DNA of 64,000 nucleotides from Micavibrio sp. (GTDB lineage: Bacteria; Patescibacteriota; Minisyncoccia; Moranbacterales; GCA-2747515), in assembly GCA_020718085.1 (NCBI GenBank), contig DYDB01000001.1, forward strand, positions 117,902-181,901, in the 5' to 3' direction. Positions 3,774 through 54,652 of the stretch are shown one piece after another. The position numbers and the translations under genes were made by a program. Numbering within the stretch: the first letter of the stretch is position 1; each line of letters begins with the position of its first letter. A model generated the notes under the pieces. The model was not told the DNA's origin and searched no databases. It worked only from the letters and a program-made list of their open reading frames with translations.

Positions 3774-4271
3774 ATGCACGCGTTCGGAATGTTGATGTAT
3801 GGAGTGATATTTTTTATCCAAATTCATTATCCTATTTATATCATAGACAAATTGATCATTGATGATGATCAAGTACAAAGACGAGAATTTGACAGAGATC
3901 AAAAAGCCATGTCGGACGCATTGATGTTGATCAACGAACTTATGTTGGTACATGAGAACGCCCCTCTTGAAAAATGGCCGAAGGATGTGAATGTCAAGCA
4001 AGGAATTCGCTCTGCGTGCCAGGTGACACAGCCACAAGTGGAAAATATGCTTAGAACGCACGCCCTCACATATGAGGGTGGAGTTACTGCGGATCATATG
4101 AAACGAGTGGCTGATCGCATGTCCAAGGCAATCGGATTTTATGCGGATGCAACGGGAAATGATGACGGAAAAGTGTATCTCGGAGAGTTTGAAGACTTTC
4201 TTCGCAGTAAAAACGTTATAGAAAATAACGGCATGTTCTTTCTTCTTTGCTTCATTGAGACGTACAAGTAA
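3774..4271 (+). CDS. hypothetical protein
   Basis: 165 aa ORF with RBS-like AAGGAGA upstream; no recognisable motif; internal start possible. Confidence 0.4.
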   Translation: MHAFGMLMYGVIFFIQIHYPIYIIDKLIIDDDQVQRREFDRDQKAMSDALMLINELMLVHENAPLEKWPKDVNVKQGIRSACQVTQPQVENMLRTHALTYEGGVTADHMKRVADRMSKAIGFYADATGNDDGKVYLGEFEDFLRSKNVIENNGMFFLLCFIETYK

Positions 4272-4315: not shown

Positions 4316-4864
4316 TCATTTTATGCAGAAAATTTGTGCGATGATCTCATCGTACACGCGAGTGCAGGTTTCTTGTTCTGCGGAAGAAAGATCTTGAAGT
4401 ACGTACGCTTCGCCGGAAATGTGGCCACGCTCTTTTTTGCCACCTGCGGATTCAATACCGATGCGAATACGCATGAAGTCTTGTGTGCCGAGAACATTGA
4501 TAATATTTTGTACGCCGTTGTGTCCCGCAGCGCGTGTATCATGGGACACCTTGTATTTACCAAGTGTAATGTCAAGGTCATCATGCACAATGATCAAGTC
4601 AGATGGAGATATTTTATAAAATTGCATCACAGAGGCAATCGCAATACCTGAACGGTTCATAAATGTTTGCGGCTTGAGAAGAATGATCTTATCTGTGTTA
4701 CATGGTATGAAACCCTCGCTGGTGTGTGCATCGTGTTTTTTATCGTGTGTGAAGGGTGGAAAATGAAAGTGGTGCGTAAAGTGATCTAAGAATAAAAAAC
4801 CGATATTATGTCGCGTATGTATATATTGCATACCGGGATTGCCGAGTCCGCAGATCAGTTTCAT
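4316..4864 (-). CDS. pth: peptidyl-tRNA hydrolase
   Basis: MKLICGLGNPG...HNIGF...NRSG motifs. ORF as given starts at 4879; the second Met at 4864 avoids overlap with the upstream gene and matches canonical Pth N-terminus. Confidence 0.88.
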   Translation of the reverse strand: MKLICGLGNPGMQYIHTRHNIGFLFLDHFTHHFHFPPFTHDKKHDAHTSEGFIPCNTDKIILLKPQTFMNRSGIAIASVMQFYKISPSDLIIVHDDLDITLGKYKVSHDTRAAGHNGVQNIINVLGTQDFMRIRIGIESAGGKKERGHISGEAYVLQDLSSAEQETCTRVYDEIIAQIFCIK

Positions 4865-4868
4865 AGAA

Positions 4869-6542
4869 TTATTGTTCATTAGTATTTAGGAGATTCTCTT
4901 GTTCCAGCTCATCACGAGATATTTCTGTATACGTGTATGTATTGAGGATATCATTTCCAAGCATGATCGCAAAATCTGATGTAATTTTTTTGTCGATGTC
5001 CGTAGCACCTTTTGTTGCAGGAACCTTTTTGATCAATTCATCCAAAGAGAAGGGTTTTGATCCGGATGTGCGATCAACGATCACTGTTGTTTCTTGTGGA
5101 ACAATTTTTTTATTCTTTGGATCAGAAAATACGGTGATACTTTGAAAGCCGATCTTTTTGAGAAGTCCGGATACACGCTCTGGAAGATCCGTGTCGGACG
5201 TAGTGTTGATGAGTGTGATCGTAGGTTCTTCGCCGTGGATGTCTTTTTCGCGTTGTGCAATTTTTTGGAGATCGAAAATGAGCTCTGCGCGTTCGCGAAT
5301 TTCTTTATAATTGCCTGTGCGTGGTGTGAGACCGGAAATGCCACCGCCGGATCCATATTGTCGCGTGCTCATAAGGAGGCTTCCGGGTTGCCATGCATCA
5401 ATTACAACAGTTGTAATGTTTTGGGTATCAAGTTTTTTGATCAAAGCGATGAACGGTTCAATTTCGTTGGGAGAGATATTGGTGTGAATATGATCGCCTA
5501 GTACATCAAATATTTCGGCAATGCGCATAGGATTTACGATTGTGCCAAGAGAGAATGCCTTGTTTTTGGCAGATTGCATGATCTGTTGTTGTCTTTTTGC
5601 GCGACCAAAATCACCTTCGGCATCATGACGTGTGCGAGCGTACTTGAGAGCGGTTTCGCCGTTGAATTTTTGTAATCCAGGATATACTTCGAATGTCTCG
5701 TAGCTGTATCCCGGTCCGGGATAGCGTTCGTCTTTGATATGACTGGGTACATCGACATTGATGCCCTCGAGCGTATCTATAATTTTAATAAAACCCTCAA
5801 AGTCCATGACAACATAATAGTGAATGGTTTGTCCGGTAATGTCTTGTACAATGTTGGTGATATGATCAGCGCCGACATTATTGCGCAGACCAGTTTGATA
5901 TACCGAGTTGATCTTGACATAGCCATAATCTGTTTGCACGAGGAGATCGCGCGGAATAGAAAAAAGTCCAATAGTATAATTTGTGGTGTTGATGCTTGCT
6001 ACCATGATCGTGTCGGTAAGATCTTTGCCGGATTTATGTGTATTCGCTCTGCCAAGAAGAAGAATGTTTATACGCCCACTATCAAATCCATTGAGCGTTT
6101 TGTATGAGTGCGGATTGGCGATATTGGCAAGTGCTTTCATAACTGACGGTTGTTCCTTATCGTCAGATATACGTGCAAGAGTCTCGTTGGTCTTGTGTAA
6201 CACGGCATATCCAGCCCATAGAATGCTTGCAAAAAATGCGATGAACGCAAGCCAAAAAATCCATTTTCCAAAAGAAAAACACCGTCGGGGCTTTTCAGTG
6301 ATCTTGGTGCGACGAATATATTCATCAAATGTCTCGACTGTATGATGCTGTGGTAACGCAGAGGGAGTTGGGGATGTGTTGTTTTTTTGAGATGAGATCG
6401 CTATGCGCGAGGATTGTGGCTGCCTAACGTTTTTGGCAAGTGATGCTGAACGATTGGGTATGGGCATTTTGGTAGATTGTGGGCGCTTAACAATGTCCAT
6501 TGCAGTGCAAATATAGTAACGAATATAATAATATTCTAGCAC
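4869..6542 (-). CDS. LytR-CpsA-Psr (LCP) family cell-envelope phosphotransferase with C-terminal extension
   Basis: 557 aa; N-terminal TM then LCP core INILLLGRANTHKSGKDLTDTIMVASIN...FSIPRDLLV. Confidence 0.8.
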   Translation of the reverse strand: MLEYYYIRYYICTAMDIVKRPQSTKMPIPNRSASLAKNVRQPQSSRIAISSQKNNTSPTPSALPQHHTVETFDEYIRRTKITEKPRRCFSFGKWIFWLAFIAFFASILWAGYAVLHKTNETLARISDDKEQPSVMKALANIANPHSYKTLNGFDSGRINILLLGRANTHKSGKDLTDTIMVASINTTNYTIGLFSIPRDLLVQTDYGYVKINSVYQTGLRNNVGADHITNIVQDITGQTIHYYVVMDFEGFIKIIDTLEGINVDVPSHIKDERYPGPGYSYETFEVYPGLQKFNGETALKYARTRHDAEGDFGRAKRQQQIMQSAKNKAFSLGTIVNPMRIAEIFDVLGDHIHTNISPNEIEPFIALIKKLDTQNITTVVIDAWQPGSLLMSTRQYGSGGGISGLTPRTGNYKEIRERAELIFDLQKIAQREKDIHGEEPTITLINTTSDTDLPERVSGLLKKIGFQSITVFSDPKNKKIVPQETTVIVDRTSGSKPFSLDELIKKVPATKGATDIDKKITSDFAIMLGNDILNTYTYTEISRDELEQENLLNTNEQ

Positions 6543-24819: not shown

Positions 24820-25083
24820 ATGCTATCGCTTATGGATTTTTGGATGCAAAAAGCATCATTTTGTTACGACGATCGCAACCGATTATTATACCAAAAAATA
24901 AAAGATTTGTCAATATTGTGTGCAAAATGAGTGAGGTATATGATGAGTTATTGACAATATAAAGATTTTACAGTATCTTAGATAAAGCTATTTGCGAATA
25001 GTGTTTTTTGCTTATATTGGTATGGGTTACTGTATAAGCAAAAGAGTTGCAAGAAATTCTAATCAATATAACAGTAAATTATT

Positions 25084-25497
25084 GTGCCTACAATCAATCA
25101 ACTGAAACGTCGTGCGCGTAAAAGTCAAAGCAGAAAAAATACTGCACCAGCAATGACAAATGTTTTTAACACATTGCAAAACCGACCAATTAAATCACAA
25201 AGCCCGTTCAAACGCGGTGTGTGTTTGAAAGTGTCTACAACAACACCAAAAAAGCCGAACTCCGCTTTGCGAAAGATCGCGCGTGTGAAGCTTACCAACG
25301 GTATGGAAGTTACAGCATATATTCCAGGTGTTGGACACAACTTGCAGGAGCACTCCATTGTGATGATCCGTGGTGGTCGTGTAAAAGACTTGCCGGGTGT
25401 ACGTTATCACGTAGTGCGTGGCGTTCTTGACTGTGCCGGAGTGGATGGTCGCCGTCGTGGACGTTCAAAATACGGAGCAAAGAGACCACAAGCGTAG
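25084..25497 (+). CDS. rpsL: 30S ribosomal protein S12
   Basis: [14 protein letters not shown]...KPNSALRK...VRYHVVRG; GTG start. Confidence 0.95.
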
Positions 25498-25536: not shown

Positions 25537-26004
25537 ATGCCAAGACGTAAAAGAGTTTATAGAAAGTCATGGCGACCTGATTCTCAGTATAATAATATAT
25601 TGGTTGGTCGTTTTATCGGACAGATCACATTAAGTGGAAAGAGATCAACTGCAGAGCGGTTGGTGTATGATGCATTTGATGTTATTCAACAACGTACAAA
25701 AAAAGGCGGTTTGAATGTTTTTGAACAAGCGATCAAAAATGTTTCTCCTCTTGTTGCACTTAAATCACGCCGTGTGGGTGGTGCAAACTATCAAGTTCCA
25801 GTGCCAGTTGTTGGTGAGCGTCGTCAAACCCTAGCGATGCGTTGGATTCGTGAAGCATGCCGTAAAGGAAAAGGAAAAGGTTTTGCCGATAAACTTGCCA
25901 CAGAATTGATCGCAGCTGCAGAAAAAGAAGGTTTGGCAATGAAAAAACGCGAAGAAACTCATCGTATGGCAGATGCAAACAAGGCTTTTGCACACTTTGC
26001 GTAG
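25537..26004 (+). CDS. rpsG: 30S ribosomal protein S7
   Basis: MPRRKRVYRK...NVSPLVALKSRRVGGANYQVPV. Confidence 0.95.
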   Translation: MPRRKRVYRKSWRPDSQYNNILVGRFIGQITLSGKRSTAERLVYDAFDVIQQRTKKGGLNVFEQAIKNVSPLVALKSRRVGGANYQVPVPVVGERRQTLAMRWIREACRKGKGKGFADKLATELIAAAEKEGLAMKKREETHRMADANKAFAHFA

Positions 26005-26184
26005 TAAGTAACTGTCTAAATATCTCACCGCCATAAAATGGCTTGCCGATTGAAATTCTAAAATTTCGGCTGCAAAACCTTCAGATCTCATCATGTTACC
26101 TACGGGTAGCATTCTCTCGATCTTCATATTTTTCGCTCGAAATTTTAGGATTTCAACCCGACATGAGATATTAGACAGTTACTA
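26005..26184. repeat. 180 bp nested imperfect palindrome (MITE-like element or long-hairpin attenuator) immediately after rpsG stop
   Basis: Outer arms 26005-26027 and 26164-26184 (TAAGTAACTGTCTAAATATCTCA / TGAGATATTAGACAGTTACTA); inner arms 26050-26068 and 26138-26156 (18/19 complementary). Confidence 0.6.
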
Positions 26185-26240
26185 AGAGAAATATTCTTTT
26201 CTTATACCATTTTTGTCATCTAACAAAATAAAAAAAACAT

Positions 26241-27140
26241 ATGAAGAAAGTATTGCGTCGCTTTGTGGACGTGTGGAAGCTAGATTTTTTGGCGAAGTTT
26301 TTTGCTGGGGAATATCGTGACACGCGGACAACAATCGTTTTTTGGATCCTTTCTAATATTATGGTGGTTTTTATTTTTACCATGCAGATCTTTTTTGGTT
26401 TGCTAATGGTGAAGGATGACCTCGTGAATGGTATACAGAAAAATGTCAATGATGGTGCGGCAGTCGCATTTTTTGACGGACAACTGACGATCGAAAACGT
26501 GGAAGATCCATTCTTTCGAGAAGTTAAGGCGACAAATGATGACGGACAAGGTGCAAACTTTGTAGTGATCATTGATCAACGTGCAGATACATATGATCTG
26601 AATGCGCTGGATGAGTATGCAAGTGGCATGATCTTTCTACATGATCGAGCATATATGAAAGATGGCAGTGACATTACGCAAGTGCTTTATGCGGATGTGC
26701 CAAATTTTTCACTATCCAAAGAGCAATTATTGGAATATTTTGATCGTTATTATATATTTCCATTTTCGATCGGTATTACGATCGTTGCGGGTGTTTTCAT
26801 GTTATTCTTCTTCTTGTGTCTGAGAACGATCGGGGCGTTGTGGTGGGCGCTTATGCTTTATGTGATCGGCTTGGTCATGAACGTGCATATGGCATATAGC
26901 GTTGCATATAAAAGCACGCTCAATCTGTATTTTGTACCAATGATCGTTGTGACACTGGTGACGGTTGTTGCAGGAACGCAAATCCCTCTTTTGACAACGG
27001 TAATTTTCATTGCAGTTTTTGTGGCAAATCTTCTGTGGTTCAAGAAACACATGAAGAAAGAAGAGACAGTGGAAAATGAGGTAATTATACCTGCACAAGT
27101 AAATACAGAAGAAAATATCAGTACCTCAGTGAAAAAATAG
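26241..27140 (+). CDS. hypothetical membrane protein inserted between rpsG and fusA
   Basis: 299 aa; N-terminal TM, periplasmic segment, C-terminal multi-TM bundle. Confidence 0.55.
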   Translation: MKKVLRRFVDVWKLDFLAKFFAGEYRDTRTTIVFWILSNIMVVFIFTMQIFFGLLMVKDDLVNGIQKNVNDGAAVAFFDGQLTIENVEDPFFREVKATNDDGQGANFVVIIDQRADTYDLNALDEYASGMIFLHDRAYMKDGSDITQVLYADVPNFSLSKEQLLEYFDRYYIFPFSIGITIVAGVFMLFFFLCLRTIGALWWALMLYVIGLVMNVHMAYSVAYKSTLNLYFVPMIVVTLVTVVAGTQIPLLTTVIFIAVFVANLLWFKKHMKKEETVENEVIIPAQVNTEENISTSVKK

Positions 27141-27249
27141 ATCAGCATTTGTCATGGATATATACCGTGACAAAGTTCATATGATGTGTTACAGTGATGC
27201 AATAATCAATTTTTTAGATATTTATAAATAAATCAATTAATCAATCATT

Positions 27250-29343
27250 ATGAGTAGGAAGACACCCCTTGATCAGTTACGTAATATTGGCATCATTGCA
27301 CACATCGATGCAGGAAAAACAACAACAACAGAACGCGTTCTGTATTATACGGGCATTTCGCATAAGATCGGTGAGGTGCATGAAGGTGAAGCAACCATGG
27401 ACTGGATGGAACAGGAGCGTGAACGTGGTATTACCATTACGTCGGCTGCAACAACAACATTTTGGAAAGATCATCAGATCAATATTATTGATACACCGGG
27501 ACACGTTGATTTTACTGTGGAGGTTGAACGCTCTATGCGCGTGCTTGACGGTGGTGTTGTAGTTTTCGACGGAAAAGAAGGTGTGGAACCACAGTCAGAG
27601 ACAGTGTGGCGCCAAGCAGATAAATACAAGGTGCCACGCATTTGTTTCATCAATAAGATCGACAAGGAGGGTGCGGATTTTGATCGTGCACTTACATCAA
27701 TTCATGAGCGTCTGACACCTCATGCAATTGCAGCGCAATTACCGGTTGGTGAGCGTAGCGGATTTGAAGGCGTGATCGATCTGATCACAATGAAAAAAGT
27801 GACATTTGGCGGTAAAATGGGTGAAGAGGTGATCACAGAAGAATGTCCGGAGGAATTAAAGGCAAAAGCTTTGGAATGGCGTGAAAAATTGGTAGAAAAA
27901 GCAGCTGAGCAAGATGATGATCTCATGGAAAAATATTTGGGCGGAGAAGAACTTAGCGAGGCAGAGATCAAGTCAGCTATTCGCAAGGGCGTGATCGCAA
28001 CAACACTCATCCCTGTGTTCACGGGAACAGCACTTCAGAATAAAGGCGTGCAGTTGGTTTTGGATGCAGTGGTGGATTATTTACCGGCACCAAATGAGAT
28101 CCCACCTATTATCGGTAAAGATCCACGTAATGCAGATAAAGAAATAATCCGTCAAGCGACAGATGAAGAACCTTTTGCTGCACTTGCATTTAAAGTCGCA
28201 ACAGATCCTTTCGTAGGACAGCTGATCTTCTTCCGCATCTATTCCGGTTCACTCCAATCCGGATCATATGTTGTAAACACTACAAGTGGCAAGAAAGAGC
28301 GTGTAGGACGTATCTTGCGCATGCATTCCAACAATCGTGAAGAGGTGCAAGAGTTGTTTGCTGGTGAAATTGGTGCGCTTGTAGGACTCAAGGCAACAAA
28401 AACAGGAGATACATTGTGTGATCCTGACAATCAAGTAGTACTTGAATCCATTGAATTTCCAGAACCGGTGATCGCAATTGCTGTAGAACCAAAGACAAAG
28501 GCTGATCAAGAAAAAATGGGCATTGCACTCGGCAAGCTCGCAGAAGAGGATCCAACATTTCGTGTGCGCACGGATGAAGAATCTGGTCAAACGATCATTT
28601 CTGGTATGGGCGAATTGCATTTGGATATTATTGTTGATCGTATGCGTCGTGAATTTAAAGTAGAAGCTAATATTGGGCAGCCACAAGTATCATATCGTGA
28701 AACGATCACACAAACGGCAGAAGGTGAAGGAAAGTTCATCAAGCAATCTGGTGGACGCGGACAATATGGTCATTGTTGGGTACGCATTTCACCACGTGAA
28801 CAAGGTCAGGGATTTGAATTTGTGGATGAGATCAAGGGCGGTGTAATTCCACAGGAATATATCAAACCTGTTCAACAAGGTGCTGCTGAGGCGATGAACA
28901 ATGGTGTGATTGCAGGTTATCCAATGGTTGATGTTTCCGTTGCCCTTTATGATGGTAGTTACCATGATGTGGACTCCTCTGAAGCAGCCTTCAAAGTTGC
29001 GGGATCCATGGCCTTCAAAGCCGCCGTGCGCAATGCAAAGCCGATCATTCTTGAGCCGATCATGGCAGTGGTGATCCTTACGCCGGAACAGTCCATGGGT
29101 GATGTTGTGGGTGATGTGAACGCAAAGCGTGGTGTAATCAAGGAAATGAATGATCGTGGAGAAGGTATGGCGATTCTCAAAGAGATCCACGCAGAAGTTC
29201 CACTTTCCGCAATGTTTGGATATGCAACACAATTACGCTCCATGTCACAGGGACGAGCAAGTTCCACGATGGAATTTAGTCACTATGCGGAAGTGCCAAA
29301 TAATATTGCACAAGAGATCATTGGAAACAGTGAAAAGAAATAG
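27250..29343 (+). CDS. fusA: elongation factor G
   Basis: [20 protein letters not shown]...[13 protein letters not shown]...[11 protein letters not shown]. Confidence 0.97.
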
Positions 29344-29369
29344 GCGATCATTTGAAACAGCTTTTTTGG

Positions 29370-29407
29370 GAACCCTGCACATCTTGTGCAGGGTTTTCTT
29401 TTTTTGG
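29370..29407 (+). terminator. rho-independent terminator after fusA
   Basis: GAACCCTGCACATCTTGTGCAGGGTTTTCTTTTTTTGG. Confidence 0.8.
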
Positions 29408-48046: not shown

Positions 48047-48172
48047 ACCCCCTCTCCCTATGGGAGAGGGTTGGGGTGAGGGAATTAGTAAATTGTGCAA
48101 GAATGGCATATTTTTTGTGTATGAGAAATGTTATATCCCTCACCTCAGTCCTCTCCCATAGTGAGAGGAGGC
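48047..48172. repeat. G-rich repeat copy 3 (48047-48084) with diverged inverted partner (48135-48172) forming a large hairpin
   Basis: AACCCCCTCTCCCTATGGGAGAGGGTTGGGGTGAGGGAATT ... ATCCCTCACCTCAGTCCTCTCCCATAGTGAGAGGAGGC. Confidence 0.6.
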
Positions 48173-54231: not shown

Positions 54232-54591
54232 GGAAGTTCGTCGGATGACAGCTCTACGGAGAGGAAAGTCCGGACACCTGCACGCCTTTGGCGTGTATAA
54301 CGGTAGTGGGTAATACCCACCTAGAGTGATCTACGAGGTGCGAGCAGTGACGCATAGAACCGCAAGGTTGTATGACCCAGTTTCTCTTTGAGACGGGGAT
54401 ATGCTCATAGTAATATGAGAGTGAAACGGCTAAATCTTTACCAAGGTGCAAGATCGTGTCACGCACCCAAAAACACCAAAGTTTTTTGATGTTCTTGGGT
54501 GCGTGAAGAATCGCAAAGACGCATATGGCAACATAGGCGCAAGACAGATTGTCATCTTCAACGACAGAATCCGGCTTACAGATGATCTTCC
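54232..54591 (+). ncRNA. rnpB: RNase P RNA (bacterial type A)
   Basis: P4 strands GAGAGGAAAGTCCGGACACC (5-prime) and ACAGAATCCGGCTTACAG (3-prime) match universally conserved RNase P RNA sequences; GGAAG...CTTCC P1 pairing; TATAAT at about 54199. Confidence 0.85.
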
Positions 54592-54652
54592 AATAATGCA
54601 AATGAACAAGTATATATAATTATGATCGATATTTGATAGAATATTTATTTTT

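Follow-up and report, generated by a model that had tools for sequence, protein, structure and literature searches.

A probable MITE-like mobile palindrome inserted just after rpsG in the str operon of a Candidatus Moraniibacteriota genome

In the stretch of DNA analysed here (64,000 nucleotides, hereafter the window; G+C 40.6%), a long palindrome and a membrane-protein gene lie between rpsG and fusA, within the highly conserved str operon. This arrangement raises the question of whether one event brought both into the operon, and of what the palindrome is. A first reading made from the sequence alone (the sequence-only reading) had treated the two as a single interruption, suggesting that the gene may have arrived with the palindrome and that the latter could be a MITE-like insertion, a long-stem attenuator or a structured RNA. 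The host lineage, Candidatus Moraniibacteriota, belongs to the CPR and has small genomes; the best identity of the window's S7 protein is 72%, to metagenome-assembled genomes (MAGs) labelled Candidatus Moraniibacteriota or Parcubacteria.

All genes of the operon are on the forward strand. A promoter-like site (TTGACA-17-TATCTT, 24951..24979, a consensus match only) lies 5' of rpsL and is likely the operon promoter. Downstream are rpsL (ribosomal protein S12, 25084..25497; Pfam Ribosom_S12_S23, E 2e-37), rpsG (ribosomal protein S7, 25537..26004; Pfam Ribosomal_S7, E 2e-55; stop codon TAG at 26002-26004), the palindrome, the gene for a 299-aa membrane protein (26241..27140), a 109-bp spacer (27141-27249) and fusA (EF-G, 27250..29343; 84–98% identity to fusA of relatives). 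An intrinsic-terminator-like hairpin, 14 pairs then a T-run, lies 3' of fusA on the same strand (29368..29398), and the whole rpsL–fusA block is bracketed by the promoter-like site and this hairpin.

The membrane protein belongs to a known domain family. It matches PF06691 (DUF1189) with an E-value of 1.6e-12 (47.9 bits, against a curated cut-off of 28) over residues 31-260, covering profile positions 25-237 of 244, and its hydropathy profile has one hydrophobic segment near the N-terminus and about four towards the C-terminus. A protein search gave 20 homologues of 42–100% identity, PF06691 being present in 20 of 20, and the genomic context was looked up for eight homologues (L081-L084, L091-L094). 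The contig with the closest of these (L081, 89% identity) starts inside rpsG and carries the 3' end of rpsG–DUF1189–fusA, with 57 bp between rpsG and the DUF1189 gene. The order rpsL–rpsG–DUF1189–fusA is complete in the others, with the same spacer measuring 67 bp in L082 (65% identity), 43 bp in L083/L084 (58%), 50 bp in L092 (47%), 39 bp in L091 (46%) and 56 bp in L093/L094 (41%). All relatives looked up, the most divergent at 41% identity, thus have the gene between rpsG and fusA, and none has it together with a palindrome. Because it holds the same position in relatives that have no palindrome, it is a long-standing, clade-wide member of the operon that arrived separately; judged from these loci, it predates the palindrome by far and is unconnected with it. 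The idea of a joint arrival therefore falls. What had been described as an interruption is real in the sense that palindrome and gene are both there, but it is the product of two unrelated events of very different age. In distant Moraniibacteriota (S7 67–72% identical, L001-L009) the rpsG–fusA junction has no DUF1189 gene. The DUF1189 protein also evolves much faster than its operon neighbours (41–89% identity, against 88–94% for S7 and 84–98% for EF-G at the same loci), and the contexts looked up give no hint of the reason for a membrane protein staying in the str operon.

The comparison of rpsG–fusA junctions that the sequence-only reading had proposed, in which the DUF1189 gene is kept and the palindrome is absent from the compared relatives, also supplies the empty site. 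L081 is 88.4% identical to the window in DNA over 3.2 kb, and its junction reads GCGTAGTAAGAGAAAT, i.e., GCGTAG-TAA-GAGAAAT. The window reads GCGTAG-TAA-[175 bp]-TAA-GAGAAAT, the 175 bp (26008-26182) starting with GTAACTGTCTAA and ending with TTAGACAGTTAC, and the spacer is otherwise identical base for base. The filled and empty sites together define a left copy (26005..26007) and a right copy (26183..26185) of a duplicated TAA target. The length of the duplication is ambiguous at 2–4 bp (TA, TAA or TAAG), TAA being the most symmetric reading. The rpsG reading frame is intact because the target lies just past its TAG stop codon.

The rpsG–DUF1189 spacer measures 236 bp in the window, as opposed to 39–67 bp, free of any palindrome, in relatives. 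The element is absent from L081, L082, L083, L091, L092 and L093. With six outgroup loci of the same gene order lacking it, absence is ancestral and a gain in the lineage of the window is the parsimonious reading. A contig from the same groundwater metagenome as L081 (L085; ERZ909603) is 100% identical to the window across rpsL–fusA, element included, and the element is 100% identical in L085 and L086. This set of junctions shows that the insertion is younger than the split from the 88%-identical sister species, and that the element entered an operon already ordered rpsL–rpsG–DUF1189–fusA; among the loci compared, it is confined at the rpsG site to one species. Conservation of the palindrome at rpsG–fusA throughout the lineage, which would have marked it as a lineage feature, is contradicted by the compared relatives, which carry the gene without it.

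The palindrome is full-length and imperfect and begins 3 nt past the rpsG stop codon. Its terminal inverted repeats, at 26008..26019 and 26171..26182, are perfect complements over 12 bp and extend to ~20 bp if one bulge is allowed. The outer arms (26007-26027 and 26164-26183) form 13 perfect base pairs, a 1-nt bulge and 7 more base pairs, and the inner helix (5' arm at 26050-26070 on the plus strand, partner at 26136-26156) has 21 uninterrupted pairs, the inner-arm repeat reaching 38 nt at 76% complementarity. A side hairpin on one arm only (GCCAT-AAA-ATGGC, 26030..26042, plus strand) and an apical hairpin with a UACG loop on the plus strand (26093..26112) complete a single rod in which 67 bases per side are paired. 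All the parts described by the sequence-only reading, a long imperfect palindrome with nested arms just after the rpsG stop, are in the sequence, and the fold check that it had called for gave a strong hairpin: the RNA fold of 25995-26245 has −76.3 kcal/mol, with no sign of the lack of stability that would have spoken against it (z −9.5; dinucleotide shuffles −37.5 ± 4.1, 0 of 200 as good). The minus strand folds equally well (−80.1, z −6.9) and there are two G-U pairs on one strand versus four on the other; since neither measure favours a strand, we read the structure as a palindrome at the DNA level with no strand preference.

At 175 bp the element is short (<500 bp) and non-coding, as MITEs are, with open frames of at most 57 aa, one of which is open for all 57 codons. 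The scan for plus-strand promoter-like sites found none within the element or between it and the DUF1189 gene, and the scan for terminator-like sites found none at the palindrome; no U-tract follows the stem, and the nearest U-rich run, ~14 nt past it, is part of the native spacer. Rfam 15 at gathering thresholds gave no match for the palindrome, and at E<10 the best match was to a plant microRNA hairpin (17 bits, against a gathering score of 90). The one Rfam match in the window is elsewhere, a bacterial class A RNase P RNA at 54233-54594 (106 bits, gathering score 100), several of whose helices are shortened or missing. The 64 kb hold just one further palindrome of similar size (48048-48171), which indicates that the intergenic spacers of this genome do not routinely contain such structures. 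That second palindrome is in an A+T-rich intergenic spacer; its arms, CCCCCTCTCCCTATGGGAGAGGGTTGGGGTGAGGGA and the partner of this, are rich in G+C, and its fold has −68.6 kcal/mol (z −7.1). In sequence it has no relation to the rpsG element, and it may be either a further small mobile element or a structured RNA.

Homologous copies were sought through spurious ORFs that might have been called on them, with the 57-codon open frame of the element as the query. A word-index search with this peptide gave nothing. An exhaustive search of 1.84 billion representatives gave one match (P0021, E 5e-4), which proved to be a spurious ORF called on a further copy, in a contig of 52.7 kb (L096); a profile built from the two peptides found nothing further. 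At the DNA level L096, and likewise L097 and L098, holds a full-length homologue (blastn 76% identity, E 3e-21), which a covariance model (R1) scores at 217 bits, and copies of this type recur in two other samples (L098, L099). The L096 host has 54% GC, and its pseudouridine synthase clusters at at least 90% identity with a protein of a Candidatus Moraniibacteriota MAG. The L096 element is flanked on one side by a hypothetical gene and on the other by cysS, whose 3' end is ~90 nt upstream of it; relative to the upstream gene, its orientation matches that of the window copy. As the cysS context is unrelated to the str operon, homologous copies occupy unrelated loci, which is what mobility predicts. 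No orthologous empty site was found for the L096 copy, synteny breaking in the related genome (L100/L101), and this copy has no clean direct repeat, with TCA on one side and TGA on the other.

The rod shape is kept between the two copies. Of 57 predicted pairs common to both, seven have changed on both sides and still pair, three differ on one side only, by a change to or from G-U, and no pair has been lost. The compensatory changes extend to the terminal repeat, GTAACTGTC in one copy and GTATCTCTC in the other, mirrored at the opposite end. The one-sided extra segment that forms the side hairpin is on the same arm in both copies, and the apical stem is kept in L096 while its loop is not. In L096 the homologous core is central in a longer palindrome of ~290 nt (~838-1135, equal to L097 ~3970-4270), which has an extra motif, CGCAAAGACGG, repeated twice on one side; either the copy is nested within a second palindromic element into which it inserted, or L096 carries a longer version of the element. 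A Logan contig (L099) ends, at position 4043, inside the L096-type palindrome, and this end may be an assembly break caused by the palindrome. Palindromic elements could for this reason be under-represented in collections of short contigs.

Copies within a genome are another matter. The BLAST search for further copies that the sequence-only reading had put forward as a test for a MITE, run on the 64-kb window (blastn, word size 7) along with a terminal-repeat search allowing three mismatches and covariance model R1, gave no second copy; in the window and 262 kb of related sequence, one copy only was found. Several copies per genome, as expected of a MITE, are thus not seen within the scope of the window. 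In JGI metagenomes, the pattern GTAACTGTCTAAN{0,1}TATCTCA gave four single-ended matches, all in coding sequence and all by chance; three patterns gave nothing in viral contigs, and blastn in distant mode gave nothing in plasmids. In these three collections the terminal-repeat pattern revealed neither a transposase nor an IS with matching ends.

Several known families offer points of comparison. Correia elements of Neisseria (CREE/NEMIS) are non-coding, ~100–155 bp long, have terminal inverted repeats and a TA-containing target duplication, and lie in intergenic spacers, also inside operons, where they are co-transcribed; the hairpin that they form can be cut by RNase III or affect the stability of the mRNA (PMC2649163, PMC10969869). 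The 175-bp element is likewise short and non-coding, with terminal inverted repeats and a TA-containing duplication, and is intergenic within an operon; it has no sequence similarity to Correia elements and comes from another phylum. Correia elements are present in many copies in Neisseria, whereas one copy of the 175-bp element was seen, and the IHF sites and promoter fragments of Correia elements were not detected in it. The ERIC/IRU and RUP/BOX MITEs are imperfect palindromes of 100–200 bp just 3' of genes, are transcribed, affect transcript stability and are down to one copy per genome in some hosts (PMC10969869, PMC3049150). They belong to other lineages and have no homology to the 175-bp element, for which presence and absence at a single site, with a clean duplication, are better documented than family size.

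Taken together, these observations make it very probable that 26008-26182 is a non-coding, non-autonomous, MITE-like mobile palindrome, one of a small family in Candidatus Moraniibacteriota, that inserted at TAA after the rpsG stop codon. Of the options that had been offered for the palindrome, the MITE-like insertion is the one borne out by the empty site, the 12-bp terminal inverted repeats, the direct repeats, the absence from relatives and the homologue at an unrelated locus. A flanking target-site duplication with a matching empty site, as expected of MITEs, is seen at rpsG in the form of TAA, although the L096 copy lacks a clean repeat. The element is probably a new family of a well-known kind. 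Its terminal inverted repeats and direct repeat suggest that it would be mobilised in trans by a DDE transposase.

In the operon, the element would be transcribed within the polycistronic rpsL–rpsG mRNA, given that the likely operon promoter is upstream of rpsL and that the rpsG–DUF1189 spacer appears to have no promoter of its own. Its RNA would be a ~67-bp rod that includes the 21-bp perfect helix. A perfect helix of 21 bp is long enough for RNase III cleavage, and the hairpin could plausibly serve as an RNase III substrate or stabilise the 3' end of the rpsL–rpsG message. (A search of the window for an RNase III signature motif found none, which is uninformative.) Read-through into the DUF1189 gene is to be expected, as the stem has no U-tract after it. 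These predictions of transcription, read-through and RNase III behaviour follow what has been described for Correia and ERIC elements (PMC2649163, PMC10969869). The net effect on the host would most likely be that of a tolerated, near-neutral insertion of a selfish element.

Pairing is conserved over the whole length, which exceeds what a DDE transposase would need and hints at an additional constraint. This might act on a single-stranded DNA hairpin, on the RNA, or through self-templated repair of the arms. REPINs and PATEs keep their hairpin shape by compensatory changes, as the window and L096 copies also do, and the element might accordingly be a hairpin moved as single-stranded DNA by an HUH/Y1 transposase, like REPINs (with RAYT) or the IS200/IS605-derived PATEs. 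TAAG would then be the target motif beside the insertion and the second TAAG the element's own end, with no duplication. Indeed, no duplication is required to read the filled site, direct repeats are missing from the L096 copy, and pairing is kept over the whole length with seven compensatory changes and no broken pair in copies that have diverged by 24%. We nevertheless consider this route unlikely. Perfect 12-bp terminal inverted repeats next to a direct TAA are the signature classically left by DDE enzymes, and neither a RAYT nor a TnpA gene was seen in the window (RAYT was looked for in the window only). Copy number is very low where REPINs are abundant, and the element forms a single continuous rod in place of two REP units or two subterminal hairpins. 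REPINs consist of two short REP units, are abundant, have a RAYT gene alongside and do not show the signature of terminal inverted repeats with a duplication; the 175-bp element was seen in a single copy, with no REP-like units.

Two further explanations are less likely still. A selected cis-regulatory RNA (an attenuator, processing site or mRNA stabiliser) that parts rpsL–rpsG from DUF1189–fusA would account for a very stable fold (z −9.5) placed exactly at a cistron boundary, for the pairing kept in the L096 homologue, and for the unrelated hairpins at the same junction in other Moraniibacteriota (L003, L007, L009). It would hardly be missing in the sister species and in every other relative that shares the operon, nor recur as a homologue at an unrelated locus, and the structure has no strand preference, no U-tract after the stem and no Rfam family; we give it very little probability. 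For the attenuator or lineage-conserved structured RNA that had been proposed from the sequence, the presence in one species only, the missing U-tract and the lack of an Rfam match are adverse as well, and the features of an intrinsic terminator or attenuator are wanting, there being no direct U-run and the stem being absent in all relatives. It would be more improbable still for the palindrome to have been born in place, by template switching or fold-back duplication, or to be ancestral and precisely deleted in L081. Replication errors can create and remove long palindromes, and the end-points of such a deletion would lie in short direct repeats (TAA), but a homologous element sits at an unrelated locus in a different genome, and the six outgroup loci without the element make gain the parsimonious reading.

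The MITE-like insertion, then, is the reading we retain, and a bolder one may be considered beside it. Both copies seen are in sense orientation just downstream of a stop codon (after rpsG, after cysS). The two may represent an as yet undescribed CPR/Patescibacteria family of rod-shaped mobile hairpins in which the shape, and not just the ends, is selected and which land in sense just 3' of stop codons, a proposal that we regard as speculative and rather unlikely to hold. Such elements might move as single-stranded DNA hairpins via an HUH-type enzyme, or might persist as portable mRNA 3'-end or RNase III modules in genomes with little other mobile DNA.

The neighbouring signals suggest how the operon could have accommodated the insertion. 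The sequence-only reading had noted a separate promoter-like region before fusA, and a −35/−10 motif there is conserved across the clade. In the window it is GTGACA-17-TACAGT, TG-extended (27167..27195, plus strand), and it is conserved in seven relatives, in which TGACA is invariant, as are the T, G, T and A positions of the −10-like TG-TA box that follows. The box itself varies, being TACAGT in the window, TATAGT in two relatives and of other forms in the rest. Having its own clade-conserved promoter-like motif could buffer fusA against the insertion and so make the spot permissive. A small 10-bp hairpin (27148..27174, plus strand), made by a ~20-nt insertion that is present only in the window and L081, has its 3' arm over the −35 box (GTGACA); it might occlude or modulate the promoter-like motif, or end DUF1189 transcripts.

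Other insertions have been found at this junction elsewhere in the phylum. In a Parcubacteria MAG (L003, 4469-4955), the rpsG–fusA spacer holds a PDDEXK_3 ORF (PF13366, E 3e-23) bracketed by a ~33-bp stem (z −4.2) that starts directly behind the rpsG stop and ends shortly ahead of the fusA ATG. This inverted-repeat-bracketed insertion shares its junction with the 175-bp element and differs from it in having an ORF and an unrelated sequence; the ORF may be akin to the GxxExxY-type ORFs of 23S rRNA intervening sequences. L002 has at the junction a 154-aa hydrophobic ORF with no Pfam match (4480-4944), and L007 (4469-4653) and L009 (4469-4617) have A+T-rich low-complexity palindromes with z about −3. 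In three other Moraniibacteriota the junction is only 50–60 bp. From these sequences the rpsG–fusA junction looks permissive for insertions, and across the phylum it has repeatedly taken up different ones.

The overall weight of the finding is limited. The element is of a known kind; its host lineage is unusual, and the site that it occupies is conserved to an unusual degree. A limited search of the literature found no relevant paper on MITEs in Patescibacteria. It does provide a clean and datable transposition, with the filled and the empty site in two co-occurring groundwater populations and in a highly conserved operon. It also corrects the picture of an interrupted str operon, DUF1189 being stable clade-wide in rpsL–rpsG–DUF1189–fusA. 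Finally, the conservation of shape between the two copies raises a small and testable question, namely what keeps these palindromes paired.
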